This document shows, piece by piece, positions 4,758 to 54,459 of a stretch of 64,000 bases of DNA. The stretch spans positions 90,168 to 154,167 of the forward strand of contig MGJB01000006.1 of NCBI GenBank assembly GCA_001794055.1, given 5' to 3'. The position numbers were made by a program, and so were the translations under genes. The DNA is from Candidatus Yanofskybacteria bacterium RIFCSPHIGHO2_01_FULL_41_26 (lineage in GTDB: Bacteria > Patescibacteriota > Minisyncoccia > 2-02-FULL-40-12 > GWA2-44-9). The notes beneath the pieces were generated by a model. It was not told where the DNA came from and searched no databases. It was given only the letters and a program-made list of their open reading frames with translations. Positions within the stretch are counted from its first letter, which is position 1. Each line of letters begins with the position of its first letter.

Positions 4758-5576
4758 ATGATTACTTTCAGGAAATTAGGACTCTTAGGGAGGTTTGGCA
4801 ATCAGCTTTTTCAATATGCCGGCGCCAGAATGTACGCGGATATCAATGGATTTAAGAGCGCTTTTCCAGGTTGGGTTGGTAATAAAATTTTCGAAAATAT
4901 CATATCTTATAACAATCGCGAGTATCTGTTGAGCCGGTTTTTGCCAACTCGACAATTAAACGACTTTCTCTCTTATACCCGCACAGACAAAATAAAATAC
5001 ATGCTTCGTCTTCAGAAACAACTGCCCCAAACTATTGCACTGAATAAATTATATGCGCATCCGGAAGATAATATAAACTTTTTAGGATATTTCCAAAATG
5101 AATTGAGTTTAAAAATATTAAAGGAAAGAAAAAATTACGTTTTAGGTTGGTTTGTTTTTAAAAAAGATATCGCTGATGAGTTTAAAAAGGTAACTCAAAA
5201 CTATAAGCCCTGGACAGGAATTCATATTCGAAGAGGCGACTTTGTAAAAAGGGGCCTTTCTCTGCCGGTTTTTCTTTACAAAGATTTTTTAAAAAGTGTC
5301 GACAAAAAAAATATTTATATTTCCTGTGATGACCCGGAAACAATCTCTGAATTTAAAGATTACTCGCTTATAAGACCAGCAAATCCCTTGCCCGAAATAC
5401 CTAATTTTATCTTTGACTTTTGGATGTTAAAAGAGTCAGAGATGGTTTTGGGTTGCGGTTCGACTTTCTCTTGGTGGGCGGCTTATTTAGGTAACCGAAA
5501 CAATTATTTCAGTCCACCGCTGACTCATTTGTGGCCAAAAGGATATAAACCGACATTAGGAAAAATGGATATCTGA
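4758..5576 (+). CDS. alpha-1,2-fucosyltransferase (GT11)
   Basis: Matches GT11/FutC signature blocks: GRFGNQLFQYA (GGLGNQMFQYA), GYFQN, IHIRRGDF (HxRRGDY) and STFSWWAAYL. Divergently transcribed from the GT4 operon. Confidence 0.8.
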   Translation: MITFRKLGLLGRFGNQLFQYAGARMYADINGFKSAFPGWVGNKIFENIISYNNREYLLSRFLPTRQLNDFLSYTRTDKIKYMLRLQKQLPQTIALNKLYAHPEDNINFLGYFQNELSLKILKERKNYVLGWFVFKKDIADEFKKVTQNYKPWTGIHIRRGDFVKRGLSLPVFLYKDFLKSVDKKNIYISCDDPETISEFKDYSLIRPANPLPEIPNFIFDFWMLKESEMVLGCGSTFSWWAAYLGNRNNYFSPPLTHLWPKGYKPTLGKMDI

Positions 5577-46001: not shown

Positions 46002-46505
46002 TTATGTGTTCTTCGCGACACGATCATCACTTTTTGTAAGTCCTGCTTTTTTGAATTCTGTTAATTTAACTCCAGTCTTTTTGGACAAAGTAAGGACGGC
46101 TTTAGATGCCTCATAGCGAGACATATAAAAATTACCGTAAACAACCTCTTTTATTCCTGCATTGACCATCACTTTAAAACAATCATAGCAAGGTGAAATA
46201 GTCAGATAAATTGAGGCGCCTTCAATAGGAGTTCCATTCTTGGCCGCTTGGGCTATAGCATTAGCTTCAGCGTGAGCCGTTCTGATGCAATGTCCGTCAA
46301 TAATTTCATGGCCGATATCATCACAGTGGGCCAAACCTCGGGGGGCACCATTATATCCGGTCGACAAAATTACTTTATTCTTAGCAATCACAGCTCCGAC
46401 ATGAGCGCGGTCGCAAGTTGAACGCTTCGCAACCACTTTTGCTATTTCAAGAAAATACTCATCCCAAGACGGTCTTTTGTTGAGTTTCGATTTCGGCTTT
46501 GGCAT
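46002..46505 (-). CDS. dCMP deaminase (cytidine/deoxycytidylate deaminase family)
   Basis: HAEANAI...PCYDCFKVMVNAGIKEVVY zinc-binding H(A)E...PCxxC motif. Confidence 0.85.
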   Translation of the reverse strand: MPKPKSKLNKRPSWDEYFLEIAKVVAKRSTCDRAHVGAVIAKNKVILSTGYNGAPRGLAHCDDIGHEIIDGHCIRTAHAEANAIAQAAKNGTPIEGASIYLTISPCYDCFKVMVNAGIKEVVYGNFYMSRYEASKAVLTLSKKTGVKLTEFKKAGLTKSDDRVAKNT

Positions 46506-46529
46506 GTTTTTAGATTAACAAATATTTTT

Positions 46530-46568
46530 TATTAAAACAAAGAGCCGAGTCTCACTCAAGCTCGGCTC
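46530..46568 (-). terminator. intrinsic terminator closing the GC-rich island transcript
   Basis: gagccgag-(11-nt loop)-ctcggctc hairpin. On the minus strand it is followed by tttgttttaat. Confidence 0.55.
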
Positions 46569-46855
46569 GAATTCTTCATTTCCTCTCCTTTTAAGTCTGA
46601 AGTTGGCGGGCCATGAAGGATTTTTACCTTCACCTTTCGGTTTTGGAGACCGATCGCTCTGTCTTTTAAGCTACTGACCCAAAATTGTGAAAAAACGAGG
46701 GAGGGAATCCGTGGGCGCTCCGCACACCTCCGGGGAGCATGCCCCAAAGGTGCGTATTACTCTCGGATTTTCCACAATTCCCTCCCACCAAAATCCTGAG
46801 CTTAGTCTAAGGACTTTTGTGGGAGACCGAGCACATTGTGCTCGGTCGGATGACG

Positions 46856-47176
46856 CTACAGGTAGCGCTTGAAGGCCTGGCGGGCGGCCATGGTTCGCTC
46901 GGCGCGGCGCCGTTCCATCTCGACTACCGTTTGCGGGTAGCGATAGAAACGGAGACCGGCCTTGCGACCCAGAGCTGCGCACCGACCACAGTGGATGTGA
47001 TCGGCCAGATCCTTGGCCATGGAAGGCCAGCGACCGGCCATCCTGCGTATGGCGGCCAGCGTCGGCACCCAGGCCTCGGCCTGCGTCAGCTTCGCCGTGC
47101 ACGGCTTGCCCGGATAGGGCTCGCCATGACACACAAAGGGCTTCGCCGGCACAACAATGGAAACTTGCTCTGTCAT
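46856..47176 (-). CDS. hypothetical small Cys4 protein of foreign (high-GC) composition
   Basis: Consensus SD aggagg 4 nt upstream of ATG (47181-47186 rc). GC3-rich codon usage. Four Cys as CHGEP...KPC...HCGRC. No family recognised. Confidence 0.4.
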   Translation of the reverse strand: MTEQVSIVVPAKPFVCHGEPYPGKPCTAKLTQAEAWVPTLAAIRRMAGRWPSMAKDLADHIHCGRCAALGRKAGLRFYRYPQTVVEMERRRAERTMAARQAFKRYL

Positions 47177-47208
47177 CTGACCTCCTAAAAAGAACTGGTT
47201 AAACTACT

Positions 47209-47251
47209 CCCATCAAAATGTTCAAAATCGAGCTTTTAACATTTTGATGGG
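47209..47251. promoter_or_regulatory. 14-bp perfect inverted repeat (operator- or terminator-like) between the two high-GC ORFs
   Basis: cccatcaaaatgtt-N15-aacattttgatggg. Sits 33-75 nt upstream of the 46856..47176 start. Confidence 0.4.
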
Positions 47252-47333
47252 ATGGGGAGAATTGCCTGTTCTACTCTCCCCCTTTGCCTGTTTATTTTTC
47301 GTCGGACACAGCAGGCTCCGACTAGGGTACCCG

Positions 47334-47591
47334 CTAGTTCAAATGAATCAAACTAGCGAACCACTGCGGTCCTAATACCCTAATGCCGTTTTCCCTTGCA
47401 AGCTCTCGTAGAGCCGCAAGTTCATCGACATAAGGAGTAAGAACTTCACCCCCATTCATCCGTTCCACCTTTCGGAAGAACTTTTGAATAGAAGCGCAGT
47501 AGTTAAATAACTCCAGCGCAGGTCTTACCTGACCATCTGGAGCTGGTACCCAGCTGAAAGTGGGCTTCCGCCCACCCTTCGGCTTGTACAT
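47334..47591 (-). CDS. hypothetical high-GC small protein
   Basis: 85-aa ORF with GC-rich codons. No SD or recognisable domain. Could be spurious in GC-rich DNA. Confidence 0.25.
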   Translation of the reverse strand: MYKPKGGRKPTFSWVPAPDGQVRPALELFNYCASIQKFFRKVERMNGGEVLTPYVDELAALRELARENGIRVLGPQWFASLIHLN

Positions 47592-48302
47592 ATCATGAAA
47601 AGAACTCTTCGACTCACTCTGTTCGCTCAGAGCAAGCCCGGGAGGGATGGTGGTGGGCGCTGGACCGTAGCTCGCAAGCAGCGAGCTTCAGGCATTCGCG
47701 ATCCATTTGGGTTCACCTGATACCAAGCCGTCGCCGTCACGGAAGGCCTAGCCCCCGCGGCATACGATCGGTCTCTTGGCTAGGTTCCGCACAACGCTCG
47801 CTTGCTAAACGAGGGTCCCCAATGCGGTATTCCTGCCACGCCATTCACCACATCCCCCTACTTAAACTGATTCTGCCACCAATGCAATGAACATGCACCT
47901 CGACAGAGAGTTTTACCGGCTAAAGCACGGTACACTCCGAGACAAGAATAATCAGCTTAAGCAGGAGGACGTGATGGTCATCAAACCACTGCCCCCTCCT
48001 ACTCTACCTACTTTTATAAAGTTTGGCTAAAGAGCTCAGAACCGATTTGAGGGTCCGGTATATTTGTTTAACGGTTGCCTCTCAATTTGATCGTTTCCTC
48101 TTTCTTTAACCTTACGGCAAGATACTATCACAAAACAAAAATCTTGTCAAGTCCTTTTGACATTTTAAAACTAAAAAACATCAAAAACTGGCTTAGAATA
48201 TAGATTATTTTACTACTATATTTTGTCAGTAAAAACTGAATTTATACTCAAGATCAGACCTCAAATAAATTTCCCGAGGACCGTCCTCGGTGTCAACAAA
48301 GC

Positions 48303-48331
48303 TTGACAAAATAAATAAAGTAGAATATAAT
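48303..48331 (+). promoter_or_regulatory. consensus sigma70-type promoter (TTGACA-17-TATAAT)
   Basis: TTGACA at 48303-48308, a 17-nt spacer, TATAAT at 48326-48331. Confidence 0.6.
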
Positions 48332-48337
48332 AGTAGA

Positions 48338-48496
48338 CGATGGCAGGACAGGAGTTCTGCCTTCAGGAAAGGAGGATTCATCGTGGGAGCTCTATAAAGA
48401 CCTTATTTATAGACCTACGAAAATAAAGTAGTAAAAAATGGTCGTCCTAAAATCCACTTTCAGACACGAGAGGGCCCCGCTACGGGGCCATTTTTT
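48338..48496 (+). ncRNA. candidate small RNA / regulatory leader (~160 nt) bounded by a consensus promoter and an intrinsic terminator
   Basis: Starts downstream of the -10 box. Internal hairpins (ggcag...ctgcc; cgatg...catcg). SD-like ggaaaggagg plus a GTG 4-codon mini-ORF. Terminator ggccccg-cta-cggggcc + ttttttaaaa at 48473-48496. Confidence 0.4.
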
Positions 48497-48538
48497 AAAA
48501 TCATTGTCCAATCAAATTATTTCTAATACAATTAATAT

Positions 48539-49282
48539 ATGTTTGAAAAGTTACGACATCTAGGACTTTCTGAAAACGAAGCCAAAATATATATGGCCAT
48601 GTTGGAGTTGGGCCCTTCAATAGTAGTTGAAATTGCAAGAAAATCCCAAATCAACAGACCGACTTCTTATGTTCAGATTGAATCCCTCAAGAAAAAAGGG
48701 CTTGTCAGCACTCAAATAAAAGGCAAAAAACAATACTTCATGGCCGAATCTCCCGATAAATTAGAACTCCTGATAGATAGTGAGTTCAAAACACTTGAAA
48801 ACAAAAAAAGTGAACTAAATACTTTTTTGCCGGAATTACTGAATCTTTTTAATAGTTCTGATCAGAGACCGCATGTTAAATTCTTTGAAGGCAAAGAAGG
48901 TGTTTTGGCTTTGCAAAAAGAATTTTTAAAAACAGATGATACTCCTATACTTGGAATCACATCTCTAGATAACGTATTTGAAGTATTCCCTGAATTTGAA
49001 AATACTTACATAAAGAAAAGAGTCCAAAAGAAAATATCTTCCCGAACGATTTATACTTCCAAGAAAGGCCCCATATTAAAAGAATCGGACGAGACAAGCT
49101 TACGAGAATCCAAATACGTTGAGCCGAATCAATTGCCTCTCGGAATTGATATCACTGTTTTCAAAAACAAGGTTGCCATTGCAGCCCTTAAGGGTAAAAT
49201 ATCCGGAACCCTAATCGAACACGAAGAAGTTGCCGATTCTTTCAGGGCAATTTTTGAACTTGTTTGGAGTAAAATAGATTAA
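48539..49282 (+). CDS. TrmB-family transcriptional regulator
   Basis: N-terminal HTH: GLSENEAKIYMAMLELGPSIVVEIARKSQINRPTSYVQIESLKKKGLV. A possible leaderless promoter TTGTCC-17-TACAAT ends 7 nt before the ATG. Confidence 0.75.
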   Translation: MFEKLRHLGLSENEAKIYMAMLELGPSIVVEIARKSQINRPTSYVQIESLKKKGLVSTQIKGKKQYFMAESPDKLELLIDSEFKTLENKKSELNTFLPELLNLFNSSDQRPHVKFFEGKEGVLALQKEFLKTDDTPILGITSLDNVFEVFPEFENTYIKKRVQKKISSRTIYTSKKGPILKESDETSLRESKYVEPNQLPLGIDITVFKNKVAIAALKGKISGTLIEHEEVADSFRAIFELVWSKID

Positions 49283-53800: not shown

Positions 53801-54181
53801 CTATTCCAATTCTGCCAGCCTTTTCTGTAAATTCTCTATTTCTCTTAATGTACTTTCCGTTCCTTGCCATCTAGCCCTACCGGCAACAATCGTGAGCTCA
53901 TCTATTCTGGCCTTAAGAATCTTTTTCTCGTTACGACCACATTGCAAACCAAAACAAAAAGCTTTGGCCAAATTAGATGGAGTAAAAGGATCTTTGGTAA
54001 AAGATAAAAGATGTTCGATATTTTGAGAATACTCTTCGTTAGCCTTAAATGTTTCTAATATTTCCCAATAGTAATTGAAGCTGTCCCTACTTCCATTGGC
54101 TTGCCATAAATCTTCAAAGCTTCTATACAAACCACAACGAATATCGTTAGAAATCTTACTTTTCAATACAATAAATAACAT
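53801..54181 (-). CDS. hypothetical protein
   Basis: 126-aa ORF. No recognisable motif. Confidence 0.35.
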   Translation of the reverse strand: MLFIVLKSKISNDIRCGLYRSFEDLWQANGSRDSFNYYWEILETFKANEEYSQNIEHLLSFTKDPFTPSNLAKAFCFGLQCGRNEKKILKARIDELTIVAGRARWQGTESTLREIENLQKRLAELE

Positions 54182-54459
54182 AGTCCTCTCCTCCTCTCCC
54201 GATTGTTAAAGTACCCCAGACAAAAAACCACCTTGGCTTGTCTGGCCAAGACGTTCTTGAGAAAAGATAATCTTGAAGAGGGTTAACTAATCAAAACCGC
54301 CGTGGCCAAAAAGCCAAAATAGGCGTATTTCTTATAGCCACGGTTATTAACTGCCAAATTGTGGTTCTGGTTAAACTTCATTGAGAGAATTTTAACAAAA
54401 TTTACCGATCTTGTCAAACCCCGCCTCATCAAATGACAAAAATAATGGGGGGCGGAGCG

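Follow-up and report, generated by a model that had tools for sequence, protein, structure and literature searches.

The locus examined here lies within a 64-kb stretch from Candidatus Yanofskybacteria (CPR), hereafter called the window, meaning the whole stretch that was analysed. A putative small RNA (sRNA) gene is placed there between a TrmB-like regulator gene (trmB) and a GC-rich small-protein operon read from the opposite strand. The features, numbered from the first letter of the window, are as follows.

48122–48150, minus strand: promoter of the divergent GC-rich small-protein operon, TTGACA, 17 nt, TG-TAGTAT (10/12, extended -10)
48145–48162: second TGTCA-N8-TGACA palindrome, whose left half coincides with the -35 of the divergent promoter on the minus strand
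48291–48308: palindrome TGTCA-N8-TGACA (TGTCAACAAAGCTTGACA), with the -35 of the sRNA promoter as its right half
48303–48331, plus strand: sRNA promoter, TTGACA (48303–48308), 17-nt spacer, TATAAT (48326–48331); 12/12
48337–48496, plus strand: predicted small RNA of about 160 nt; start placed 6–8 nt past the -10, end at the U-run
48342–48361, plus strand: hairpin A, the 5' stem-loop, GGCAGGAC-AGGA-GUUCUGCC, predicted by RNAalifold
48366–48375, plus strand: Shine-Dalgarno (SD) sequence GGAAAGGAGG (ggaaaggagg), core GGAGG at 48371–48375, 7 nt ahead of the start codon
48383–48397, plus strand: mini-ORF GTG GGA GCT CTA TAA (fMet-Gly-Ala-Leu-stop)
48392–48412, plus strand: hairpin H1, CUAUAAA-GACCUUA-UUUAUAG, overlapping the last codon and stop of the mini-ORF; present in the minimum-free-energy (MFE) fold
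48414–48432, plus strand: tentative small hairpin H2, CCUAC-GAAAAUAAA-GUAGU, recognised only by inspection of the letters
48440–48467, plus strand: pyrimidine-rich tract GGUCGUCCUAAAAUCCAC plus UUUCAGACAC, which pairs with the SD region in the MFE fold
48473–48496, plus strand: intrinsic terminator, GGCCCCG-CUA-CGGGGCC (48473–48489; seven G-C pairs, 3-nt loop) followed by A and U6 (48490–48496)
48504–48532, plus strand: own promoter of trmB, TTGTCC (48504–48509), 17 nt, TACAAT (48527–48532); 9/12 in the scan
48539–49282, plus strand: TrmB-like regulator gene, 247 aa, with the Pfam TrmB helix-turn-helix (HTH) and a TrmBL2-like architecture

The transcription unit and its fold

The sRNA promoter at 48303–48331 is the sole 12/12 match to TTGACA-17-TATAAT across the 64-kb window, and allowing up to one mismatch gave two matches against 0.56 expected. 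The terminator is strong and was picked up by the terminator scan. An earlier note on this DNA had pointed to a perfect promoter, a GC-rich hairpin with a T-run, an SD-like stretch and a mini-ORF, all of which are indeed present at the positions given there. Promoter and terminator scans of the whole 3-kb region were, taken together, not enriched over shuffled sequences; hence, a transcription unit is argued from the perfect promoter and the fold and, most of all, from what is conserved in relatives.

The plus-strand RNA (48338–48496) is predicted to fold with -57.2 kcal/mol (z = -5.5; 0 of 200 shuffles equally stable), and the opposite strand of the sRNA interval gave z = -2.4. In the MFE fold the CCUACG of the H2 region pairs with the start of the mini-ORF and not as H2. 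The pyrimidine-rich tract is the counterpart of the penultimate hairpin of the relatives (GGUUCGGAA...UUCUGRAC), and the 3' domain to which it belongs is AT-rich in the window copy, variable and poorly conserved across the family. The region had also been described as free of ORFs, which is right except for short unconserved ones. Among these, a 51-aa antisense ORF (48226–48381), called by some pipelines, resembles relatives across the promoter only and, judged by this comparison, is spurious. The stretch 48337–48496 thus looks like a discrete small-RNA gene bounded by its own promoter and its own Rho-independent terminator; the unit contains no protein-length ORF, and the arrangement is kept in relatives, as for an independent small-RNA gene.

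The Rfam scan proposed in the earlier note matched no family: at the gathering threshold Rfam 15 reported three tRNAs only across the whole window, a search of 46500–48700 at E<=10 gave nothing relevant, and for seven full-length relatives no match came up, either at the gathering threshold or at E<=0.5. A match to tracrRNA (RF02348; 21.7 bits and E = 1.7, against the 70 bits needed) was driven mostly by the terminator and was set aside as chance; the window holds no CRISPR repeat array, and the neighbours of the RNA are the TrmB-like and small hypothetical proteins, with no cas9. RNase P, tmRNA, SRP and 6S RNA came into consideration through motifs seen by eye (GAAAGUCC, ACAGAA and GGUUCG) and were set aside, as Rfam and ARAGORN detect none of them and the layout of the unit does not match theirs.

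Related RNAs and their short reading frame

Counted by pattern-based censuses and not by a covariance model, 58 distinct copies of the unit were found beside TrmB-like genes. Sequence comparison thus indicates that the window RNA is a member of an uncatalogued RNA family of groundwater CPR bacteria, found in Yanofskybacteria and neighbouring Parcubacteria beside TrmB-like regulator genes. The common plan comprises a 5' hairpin, usually with a GGAGG/CCUCC/GGAGG three-segment toggle, followed by the SD, a three- or four-codon ORF, a variable 3' domain and the terminator. The promoter block is 82–100% identical over 31–60 nt in L001, L003, L088, L090 and L091, and promoter, hairpin A, SD-ORF and terminator are common to the relatives despite large intervening insertions and deletions; the terminator is present in all close relatives with examined 3' ends except L003. 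The signature of promoter, SD and mini-ORF occurs in 7/7, 16/33 and 49/80 loci with a closer TrmB, in 1/47 loci with a distant TrmB and in none of the shuffled loci. At shorter range, the eight other assemblies carrying this trmB were compared over the 252 nt that end with its ATG (226 nt in the truncated L173): seven are identical to the window, and the eighth shows two base differences in this stretch. A lack of conservation of the interval in related genomes was part of what the earlier note named as refuting the element; they do conserve it, and the candidate unit that it had drawn from promoter to terminator recurs in them with promoter, 5' hairpin, SD, mini-ORF and terminator.

The homologous units occupy the same place but are longer (about 235–300 nt), and the window copy is the shortest form seen in the family. 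In the longer relatives the toggle consists of three complementary segments with lineage-specific extensions, so arranged that CCUCC can pair with either an upstream GGAGG or the SD. Helices A, B and P3 of the relatives are 93%, 65% and 83% paired, respectively, with 12 pairs changing on both sides; the loops are variable, and no conserved core was defined. Of these structures the window copy retains hairpin A alone; hairpin B, the two toggle segments and the variable hairpin C, which most members possess, are missing from it, as is any CCUCC. A hairpin straight after the mini-ORF stop, like H1 of the window, is common in other members. The comparison with homologous regions for covariation, likewise suggested in the earlier note, bore fruit for hairpin A, in which RNAalifold reports compensatory changes at four of six pairs; across the relatives, 93% of its cells are paired and four of seven pairs change on both sides.

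The SD and the four-codon GTG mini-ORF, which had reminded the earlier note of leader-peptide attenuators, turned out not to be incidental and are the hallmark of the whole family. The SD is found in 58/58 distinct members, with an SD-to-start spacing of 4–9 nt in 56 of them, and all 14 synteny-defined close relatives have a four-codon ORF at the same point with synonymous differences. Most members were gathered by a pattern containing the ORF, which is offset by this synteny-defined set and by censuses blind to the ORF. In the census of CCUCC...GGAG...start contexts, four codons (n = 33) and three codons (n = 19) dominate over every other length up to 11 codons (n = 1–6 each), and shifted frames give no peak at three to four codons; in the census of all SD-plus-start sites, 96 have length 4, against 33–36 at lengths 1, 2 and 5. 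The wobble base of codon 2 takes all four identities (T19, C15, A17, G3). A longer protein, read in an in-frame ORF of about 34–40 aa from the upstream GGAGG to the mini-ORF stop, was rejected, as this ORF occurs in one subgroup only and is absent in the window.

The genome itself hardly uses SD sequences: 6 of 55 genes in the window have any SD-like core, and only three strong SD-plus-start combinations stand at gene-like starts there, the mini-ORF being among these. Its ribosomes, therefore, may not read the SD in the usual way. Another SD-led gene is a neighbour, the divergently transcribed gene of a 106-aa zinc-ribbon protein; a reading of the C-terminus of this protein as bS21-like was unsupported (hhalign probability 1.3%).

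Since the genome is SD-poor, an SD need not mean initiation, and the RNA might act untranslated, by base-pairing or by binding a protein, with GGAGG...AUGGG...UAA being an RNA motif and not a gene. The GGAGG and CCUCC segments do form helices. The near-invariance of AUGGG holds for its nucleotides and could equally stem from an RNA motif, and where few genes, such as that of the 106-aa neighbour, are SD-led, a C-rich or CCUCC element would make a highly specific seed. However, the length of the frame varies in steps of three only (three or four codons), its last position is always a stop triplet with all three in use (TAA 31, TGA 16, TAG 11; n = 58), ATG alternates with GTG as the start (45 and 13), and positional variability follows the order 2<1<3 (entropy of 2.71, 0.74 and 4.43 bits at codon positions 1, 2 and 3). 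Moreover, the window copy has no CCUCC, and in a crude test with RNAduplex the RNA paired no better than shuffles, either with the mRNA of the divergent operon or with the 5' end of trmB (z = 1.6 and 0.14). Local complementarities between the sRNA and trmB (GUCCUA/UAGGAC and UUUCAGA/UCUGAAA) stand in the wrong order for a single duplex and were discarded. Taken as sequence, the mini-ORF behaves like a translated one, with its lengths in phase, three stops, ATG/GTG alternation and 2<1<3 variability, and we consider an untranslated RNA unlikely.

The trmB gene and the leader question

The neighbouring protein carries an N-terminal winged helix-turn-helix (PF01978, E = 1e-14, residues 5–67). Its AF2 model (pLDDT 78) best matches TrmBL2 (5bpd, E = 4e-12) and TrmB (3qph, E = 3e-9) and shows the HTH, the long dimerisation helix and the C-terminal alpha/beta domain of this fold; the TM-scores of the model against both structures are only about 0.4 because of domain orientation. 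The sugar-binding C-terminal subdomain of TrmB proper is absent (247 aa, against 338 for TrmB), and the NCBIfam TrmB equivalog models score 21–34 bits against cut-offs of 500–650. On the evidence of the Pfam match and the model, the TrmB assignment holds, and the protein is TrmBL2-like in length and architecture. No TrmB-like relatives were found in IMG/VR, and a phage or mobile origin was rejected on this ground.

Two ways of expressing trmB had been envisaged in the earlier note, either through the element, by attenuation or riboswitch-like control, or from a near-leaderless promoter of its own. The latter was borne out by recurrence: the -10 box of the predicted promoter ends 6 nt ahead of the ATG, which would make the mRNA leaderless, and among 104 distinct TrmB start contexts, 42, almost all from the closer TrmB relatives, have a -10 box 6–9 nt ahead of the ATG and no SD.

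In the former case, the RNA would be a cis-acting leader in which a ribosome on the mini-ORF decides on read-through past the terminator. In the window the RNA does lie on the same strand as trmB, with 42 nt from the end of the U-run to the ATG (48539), and in L156, L159 and L164 the 5' arm of the terminator begins right behind the stop codon and would be masked by a ribosome terminating there. Three-codon uORFs led by an SD do drive attenuators, as does uORF(MIN) of B. subtilis vmlR, which senses through the initiation of its translation (PMC9226507). Like vmlR uORF(MIN) and Listeria lmo0919, the RNA has a 3–4 codon ORF with its own SD inside a stem-loop, on a short transcript with an intrinsic terminator. 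Unlike these systems, with their chain of anti-antiterminator, antiterminator and terminator and their resistance gene, it has no predicted antiterminator and no adjacent resistance determinant, and the downstream gene encodes a TrmB-like regulator that has its own promoter or is convergent. A short ORF with a ribosome-binding site is also what trp, his and leu attenuators possess, but here there is no run of codons for a sensed amino acid, as the 3–4 codon frames vary at residues 3 and 4, and the predicted folds offer no mutually exclusive antiterminator and terminator. Predicted MFE folding of the window RNA and ten relatives (the search picked no terminator for L003) left the terminator in place, with no pairing to compete with it, with or without a ribosome footprint masking the mini-ORF. 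In the window, moreover, 76 nt separate the mini-ORF stop from the terminator. The orientation of the downstream gene is not conserved either: among distinct members, about 13 RNAs share the strand of trmB and lie upstream of it, and about 38 run convergently towards it from the opposite strand, their terminator abutting the trmB stop codon, so that read-through there would be antisense. As for a riboswitch, no platform switching a downstream gene was recognised; the toggle of the relatives governs the SD of the mini-ORF only and is missing from the window copy.

Hence, control of trmB through the element found no support, and a leader or attenuator is, in our judgement, decidedly unlikely. 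The element is most likely a stand-alone small RNA, as far as its sequence and predicted folds tell. Its strong promoter could still add to trmB expression by residual read-through, of which a few per cent could matter. The RNA has a parallel in Sinorhizobium rnTrpL/peTrpL, an attenuator-derived, trans-acting RNA and peptide; rnTrpL is reportedly a small terminated transcript with a leader ORF that lasts as an RNA of its own (PMC7298713, PMC7968998). Unlike the RNA described here, with its 3–4 codons and no attenuated gene, trpL has 14 codons, including Trp codons, and is a true attenuator upstream of trpE(G).

Candidate operators, mode of action and significance

TGTCA-N8-TGACA has two matches in the 64-kb window, against 0.01 expected, and both lie over a -35. 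At the related loci, all of which were retrieved through TrmB, which leaves the window as the only independent background for the TrmB-palindrome-RNA association, a spacing of 8 was found 144 times, against 0–11 times at any other spacing within 4–12. As in TrmB and TrmBL2 regulators, a protein with a TrmB HTH and a TrmBL2-like fold is encoded beside promoters overlaid by a dyad-symmetric site, although the known operators of Thermococcales TrmB differ in sequence from TGTCA-N8-TGACA. The positions of both palindromes suggest that they are candidate operators of the adjacent TrmB-like protein and that this protein probably controls the RNA.

The divergent arrangement of the small-protein operon and its promoter is kept in relatives. 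A reading of the GC-rich island downstream of the divergent promoter as one large non-coding RNA was rejected, since the island contains two genes for small proteins whose amino-acid sequences are conserved. These small proteins have no match in Pfam, PHROG, NCBIfam, PADLOC or PDB sequences, and an AF2 model of an island small protein (pLDDT 68) has no fold match in the PDB.

Considering these observations together, we regard it as somewhat probable that 48337–48496 is a stand-alone small-RNA gene, the shortest form of the uncatalogued TrmB-side RNA family, and that the TrmB-like protein regulates it. The protein would repress both the RNA and the divergent small-protein operon via the two palindromes, so that the regulatory arrow would run from TrmB to the RNA. 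The mini-ORF would be translated, and the RNA would work through the loading of a ribosome on it. Among the longer relatives, CCUCC would pair with the upstream GGAGG or with the SD, and this two-way pairing would couple exposure of the SD to the fold of the 5' domain; since the window copy has no toggle, the proposed coupling cannot operate there in the same way, and its SD may stand free or be bound to the pyrimidine tract in the 3' part of the same RNA. Transcription would stop at the terminator whatever the ribosome does, and the product would therefore be a discrete RNA and not a trmB leader. Ribosome loading might serve to stabilise the RNA or change its fold, to occupy the few ribosomes that can read an SD in an SD-poor organism, or to make the tetrapeptide.

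Several known systems share parts of this scheme. Translation of the short ORF of the lambda bar minigene, and not its product, affects expression or tRNA pools. Likewise, in the axe-txe and LEE1 leader minigenes an ORF of two to a few codons with an SD acts on neighbours or tRNA pools by its translation and not by its product (PMC8708949, PMC3262186); unlike the mini-ORF, however, minigenes sit within mRNAs or operons and do not form the conserved core of an RNA family with its own promoter and terminator. The pairing of CCUCC with the SD or with the anti-sequestor GGAGG in the longer relatives recalls SD-sequestering translational riboswitches and RNA thermometers, except that the SD here controls a 3–4 codon ORF only, no ligand-binding core is defined and the window copy is without the toggle. 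A precedent for an extended SD in an SD-blind lineage is rpsU of Flavobacterium johnsoniae, where it marks the need for ribosomes with a free anti-SD (PMC9976891, PMC7797042, PMC13000453). The CPR genome likewise almost lacks SD use and has few genes with an extended SD (three strong ones in the window), but the mini-ORF lies on a small RNA and not in a ribosomal protein gene, and CPR ribosomes are not known to sequester the anti-SD. We speculate, quite tentatively, that the family is a new class of ribosome-engaging small RNA particular to CPR/Parcubacteria, which would be highly expressed and under TrmB-like control, which combines an extended SD, a 3–4 codon ORF and, in most lineages, a CCUCC anti-SD mimic, and which may sense, capture or redistribute a small pool of SD-reading ribosomes and thereby set the translation of the few SD-led genes, e.g., that of the 106-aa zinc-ribbon protein.

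Alternatively, the product of the gene might be the tetrapeptide (fMet-)Gly-Ala-Leu and not ribosome occupancy. The anatomy resembles that of an expression cassette, running from the strongest promoter and a stabilising 5' hairpin through a strong SD and the ORF to the terminator, and the close relatives keep the peptide in the form M-G/W-S/A-L/V, its codons changing synonymously. Nevertheless, the 58 members encode 32 different peptides of three or four residues (M-G-x or M-G-x-x), in which Gly2 alone is constant, no modification, export or immunity gene is recognisable nearby, and the shortest accepted peptide genes known to us are longer than four codons (mccA has seven); a peptide product is, in our view, very improbable. 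That the window copy is a decaying remnant of a longer ancestral RNA, its function lost, as its missing hairpins and toggle segments and its AT-rich, poorly conserved 3' domain might indicate, seems very improbable, given the perfect promoter, the intact terminator, SD, start and stop, the near-complete identity among the other assemblies, a fold far more stable than shuffles and a second short-form lineage (L095/L096) that keeps the same parts with synonymous ORF changes.

CPR bacteria, a very large and mostly uncultivated share of bacterial diversity, have tiny genomes and cells that hold few ribosomes, and, to our knowledge, very little is known of their regulatory RNAs; in the set of papers searched, neither regulatory RNAs of these bacteria nor an RNA of this kind were described. 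The locus offers a concrete, widely conserved candidate for a CPR regulatory RNA with a clear anatomy and an obvious partner regulator. For annotation, it implies that trmB is leaderless here and that the 51-aa ORF on the opposite strand is spurious. If translated, the 3–4 codon frame would be among the shortest conserved reading frames known, and it would be unusual in that it is no uORF but forms the core of an RNA that stands by itself. Moreover, the presence of strong SD sequences in one module of an SD-poor genome may tie this RNA to the question of why SD-poor lineages retain the anti-SD.

Parts and conservation of the RNA

The window derives from a Candidatus Yanofskybacteria genome (CPR/Parcubacteria), and the TrmB-like protein encoded 3' of the predicted small RNA (sRNA, 48337-48496) shows 100% identity to one from Yanofskybacteria RIFCSPLOWO2_01_FULL. 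The promoter, terminator, Shine-Dalgarno (SD)-like sequence and mini-ORF described in an earlier note, together with a promoter for the regulator gene (trmB), were all found in place. The features considered here are as follows.

48303-48331, plus strand: sRNA promoter, TTGACA-17-TATAAT, 12/12 match to the consensus
48342-48361, plus strand: hairpin A, the 5' stem-loop of the sRNA, with compensatory changes
48366-48375, plus strand: SD-like sequence GGAAAGGAGG
48383-48397, plus strand: mini-ORF, GTG GGA GCT CTA TAA
48473-48489, plus strand: terminator hairpin with seven G-C pairs, followed by A and U6
48539-49282, plus strand: trmB (247 aa), preceded by its promoter TTGTCC-17-TACAAT
46690-48150, minus strand: divergent unit, promoter TTGACA-17-TG-TAGTAT (48150-48122)
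47334-47591, minus strand: 85-aa gene, no SD
46856-47176, minus strand: 106-aa gene, Cys-rich (Cx9C...CxxC), strong conserved SD

The sRNA promoter is the sole 12/12 match within the 64 kb, and the predicted sRNA fold reaches z = -5.5 on the plus strand, against -2.4 on the opposite strand. The sRNA is in no Rfam family, as a scan that included permissive thresholds matched none, and a literature search found no description of it. A 21.7-bit tracrRNA match was discounted as noise; no CRISPR array is present. Some public assemblies (related loci L169 and L171) annotate a 51-aa gene on the minus strand at 48226-48381, opposite the promoter and 5' end of the sRNA; this ORF matches relatives over the promoter alone and is probably spurious.

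Related loci were collected by exact look-ups of TrmB homologues and by scanning genome and metagenome collections with TrmB as the anchor. Close relatives (TrmB identity 76-87%) carry a near-identical promoter, 5' stem-loop and SD with a four-codon ORF at the same place, and a G+C-rich terminator directly 5' of trmB. In hairpin A both sides change in four of six RNAalifold pairs, and the hand-drawn structure, with 93% of cells paired, beats all slid controls. The RNA mostly spans approximately 235-300 nt in these relatives vs 160 nt in the window, its middle being missing from the window copy and from one other lineage (L095/L096). An assembly artefact does not account for this short form, since its exact sequence recurs in seven of eight other assemblies, the eighth differing by two bases.

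A census that required a promoter, an SD and a short M-G ORF, the ORF thus being part of the pattern, yielded 58 distinct family copies. The signature was present in all seven loci from exact look-ups (L001-L007), in 16/33 genome representatives with TrmB identity of at least 41%, in 49/80 metagenome loci at or above 48%, and in one of the 47 genome representatives at 29-40%; shuffled versions of the same loci gave none. The full-length plan runs from the promoter through hairpin A, hairpin B, a GGAGG, a variable hairpin C, a CCUCC and a short linker to the SD GGAGG, a 4-9 nt spacer, the ORF (AUG or GUG, GGN, one or two further codons, stop), a variable 3' domain and the terminator. The CCUCC is able to pair with either GGAGG, the pairing being extended in lineage-specific ways (e.g., CAGGAGG:CCUCCUG:CAGGAGG; CGGGAGG:CCUCCCG), and in minimum-free-energy folds it is predicted to take one or the other. 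As modelled, this geometry is that of an SD-sequestering switch, which would govern the mini-ORF alone. The window copy is a minimal form that consists of the 5' hairpin, SD-ORF, small hairpins and terminator; it has no such toggle, and the predicted fold pairs the SD with the pyrimidine tract in the 3' part of the same RNA (48440-48457).

Hairpin C of the L001 sRNA contains a G+C-rich repeat of 34-42 nt, GGGTTGCCGTCATGCGACGACTGCTCCGCTGCGCGGGTTGCC (L001 3749-3790), which is also present elsewhere in related loci (L129/L131 6361-6469; also L005, L090, L098, L100, L103 and L105), some of the copies being in tandem with a period of 34 nt. The window does not have this repeat, which partly explains why the sRNA differs in size between loci.

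The mini-ORF in a genome sparing of Shine-Dalgarno sequences

Shine-Dalgarno sequences are hardly used by this genome: an SD-like core (GGAG, GAGG or AGGA within -18 to -4) precedes just 6 of the 55 predicted genes in the window, where gene upstream regions in general are A/T-rich. A strong SD is found at only two genes, the 106-aa gene (47176), where it is kept in relatives, and a 126-aa gene (54181). The mini-ORF is the third strong SD and start in the window, and two of the three cases fall within the module formed by the sRNA and the divergent operon. In the SD-blind Bacteroidia, a gene that stands out by an isolated strong SD is translated by ribosomes in a special state (PMC9976891, PMC7797042, PMC13000453). 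Approximately eight genes, including trmB, have a -10-like box 5-10 nt 5' of the start and are possibly leaderless. The promoter ranking second in the window (TTGACA...TAAAAT, 54417-54389, minus strand) is followed by a leader of approximately 208 nt with a terminator-like hairpin and U-run (approximately 54250-54222); next come an SD longer than any other in the window, GGGAGAGGAGGAGAGG, and the 126-aa ORF (53801-54181, minus strand; no Pfam match). The stretch 54181-54417 may be another regulatory leader.

To offset the ORF-containing collection pattern, two further censuses were made without an ORF in the search pattern. Among all SD-plus-start sites of 160 non-redundant loci there were 96 ORFs of exactly four codons, vs 33-36 for lengths of 1, 2 and 5. 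CCUCC...GGAG...start contexts gave 33 ORFs of four codons and 19 of three, other lengths up to 11 occurring one to six times each, and the two shifted frames had no peak at 3-4 codons; the mini-ORF therefore varies in length only in steps of three. Across the 58 copies the start codon is ATG (45) or GTG (13), the stop TAA (31), TGA (16) or TAG (11), and the third base of codon 2 (GGN) T (19), C (15), A (17) or G (3). In 14 synteny-defined close relatives the peptide reads M-(G/W/L)-(S/A)-(L/V/A), with summed entropies over codons 2-4 of 2.71, 0.74 and 4.43 bits at codon positions 1, 2 and 3. These statistics carry, indirectly, the marks of a translated frame, and judging from sequence we infer with fair confidence that the mini-ORF is translated.

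In one subgroup, in which the sRNA and trmB are on opposite strands (L125, L135, L011, L018, L104, L147, L023, L122), an ORF of approximately 34-40 aa starts from the upstream GGAGG (e.g., MLSKSHSKEPDDRNEKGKKRRLTTIAHLPPARQEGEMGAG), passes through hairpin C and shares the frame and stop codon of the mini-ORF; no frame of this kind is conserved in the remaining members, among them every close relative of the window. In some lineages the divergent operon leader itself carries an SD and mini-ORF (MGGL, MGSL, MGGM; L017 approximately 5272-5500, L123 from approximately 5279, L157 from approximately 1573); a long hairpin comes next, and then a further SD and an ORF of 69 aa (MPVPHPTRIG...). The same module therefore also exists as a true uORF.

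Relation to trmB and the divergent operon

The proposal that read-through from the sRNA feeds or controls trmB, by attenuation or in a riboswitch-like manner, is not supported, since no antiterminator is predicted, trmB has its own promoter, and most copies lie on the opposite strand. When the SD-ORF region was forced unpaired to mimic a ribosome, the window and nine of the ten folded relatives still kept the predicted terminator hairpin (in the tenth, L003, the terminator search found none), and no antiterminator appeared in any of these folds. The alternative, a near-leaderless trmB promoter, is borne out: it ends 6 nt before the ATG and its -10 box recurs in relatives. Such a box, often in the extended form TGnTATAAT, lies 6-9 nt before the ATG with no SD in 42/104 distinct TrmB start contexts, mostly of closer relatives, which indicates a leaderless trmB mRNA. 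Approximately 13 distinct sRNA copies are upstream of trmB on the same strand and approximately 38 downstream on the opposite strand, where the terminator ends at the trmB stop codon (L007, L011, L012). Hence, the sRNA is most likely not a trmB leader, and with fair confidence we regard it as a discrete terminated RNA.

What remains constant is the neighbourhood: the sRNA is divergent from a small-protein operon, with trmB at its 3' end in either orientation. The palindrome TGTCA-N8-TGACA occurs exactly twice in the window (48145-48162 and 48291-48308; 0.01 expected), each copy overlapping the -35 of one divergent promoter. Related loci contain 144 matches at spacing 8 and 0-11 at spacings 4-12, and it also occurs where TrmB identity is just 30-38%; because all loci were retrieved through TrmB, the 64-kb window is the only background for these counts. 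The TrmB-like protein has a TrmB winged helix-turn-helix, and its predicted fold is nearest to TrmBL2 and TrmB. On the simplest reading, it would bind the palindromes and repress both the sRNA and the divergent operon; that the sRNA is under its control we infer with fair confidence. A perfect 7-bp hairpin, CCGAGGACCGTCCTCGG (48274-48290), lies between the divergent promoters directly left of a palindrome; read on the minus strand it resembles a terminator, and the relatives examined lack it at that place. In Uhrbacteria and other Patescibacteria (L041-L087; TrmB 29-40% identical), another very strong promoter, TTGACAAAATGGCATTTTTATGCTATATT, lies downstream of trmB, its -35 overlapped by the palindrome in several loci, and leads into sequence of another kind that looks structured. 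Different RNAs may therefore be under the control of this regulator-operator pair in different lineages.

The GC island on the left is not one large RNA, as it holds the two small minus-strand protein genes. Both products retain amino-acid conservation in relatives, at identities as low as 33-40%, and match no family, structure or fold, or defence system. The operon leader is G+C-rich, extends approximately 530 nt from the divergent promoter to the genes, and has an AGGAGG...CCUCCU helix near 47960-48000; at the 3' part of the unit a long hairpin and U-run stand just before tRNA-Trp (46604-46680). A 40-nt element in this leader, GACAGAGAGTTTTACCGGCTAAAGCACGGTACACTCCGA (47901-47940; also L088 1748-1786 and L008 7-46), recurs as a 100% identical insert in the terminator loop of another species' homologous sRNA (TrmB identity 87%) and might represent a small element that moves or recombines.

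Known systems and possible roles

The nearest working analogues are short-uORF attenuators such as vmlR, in which a 3-codon uORF(MIN) with its SD in a stem-loop lies 5' of the terminator (PMC9226507). The sRNA differs from an attenuator in lacking a predicted antiterminator, regulatory codons and a conserved gene downstream. Minigenes come second (PMC8708949, PMC3262186), and third rnTrpL, an attenuator-derived RNA with the peptide peTrpL (PMC7298713). A riboswitch is likewise disfavoured: the toggle of the relatives would govern only the SD of the mini-ORF, and the window copy has none.

We class the sRNA as a small RNA whose conserved core is the mini-ORF. Ribosome loading on the mini-ORF might remodel or stabilise the sRNA, or it might engage SD-competent ribosomes; as a further option, the mini-ORF may yield a tetrapeptide.
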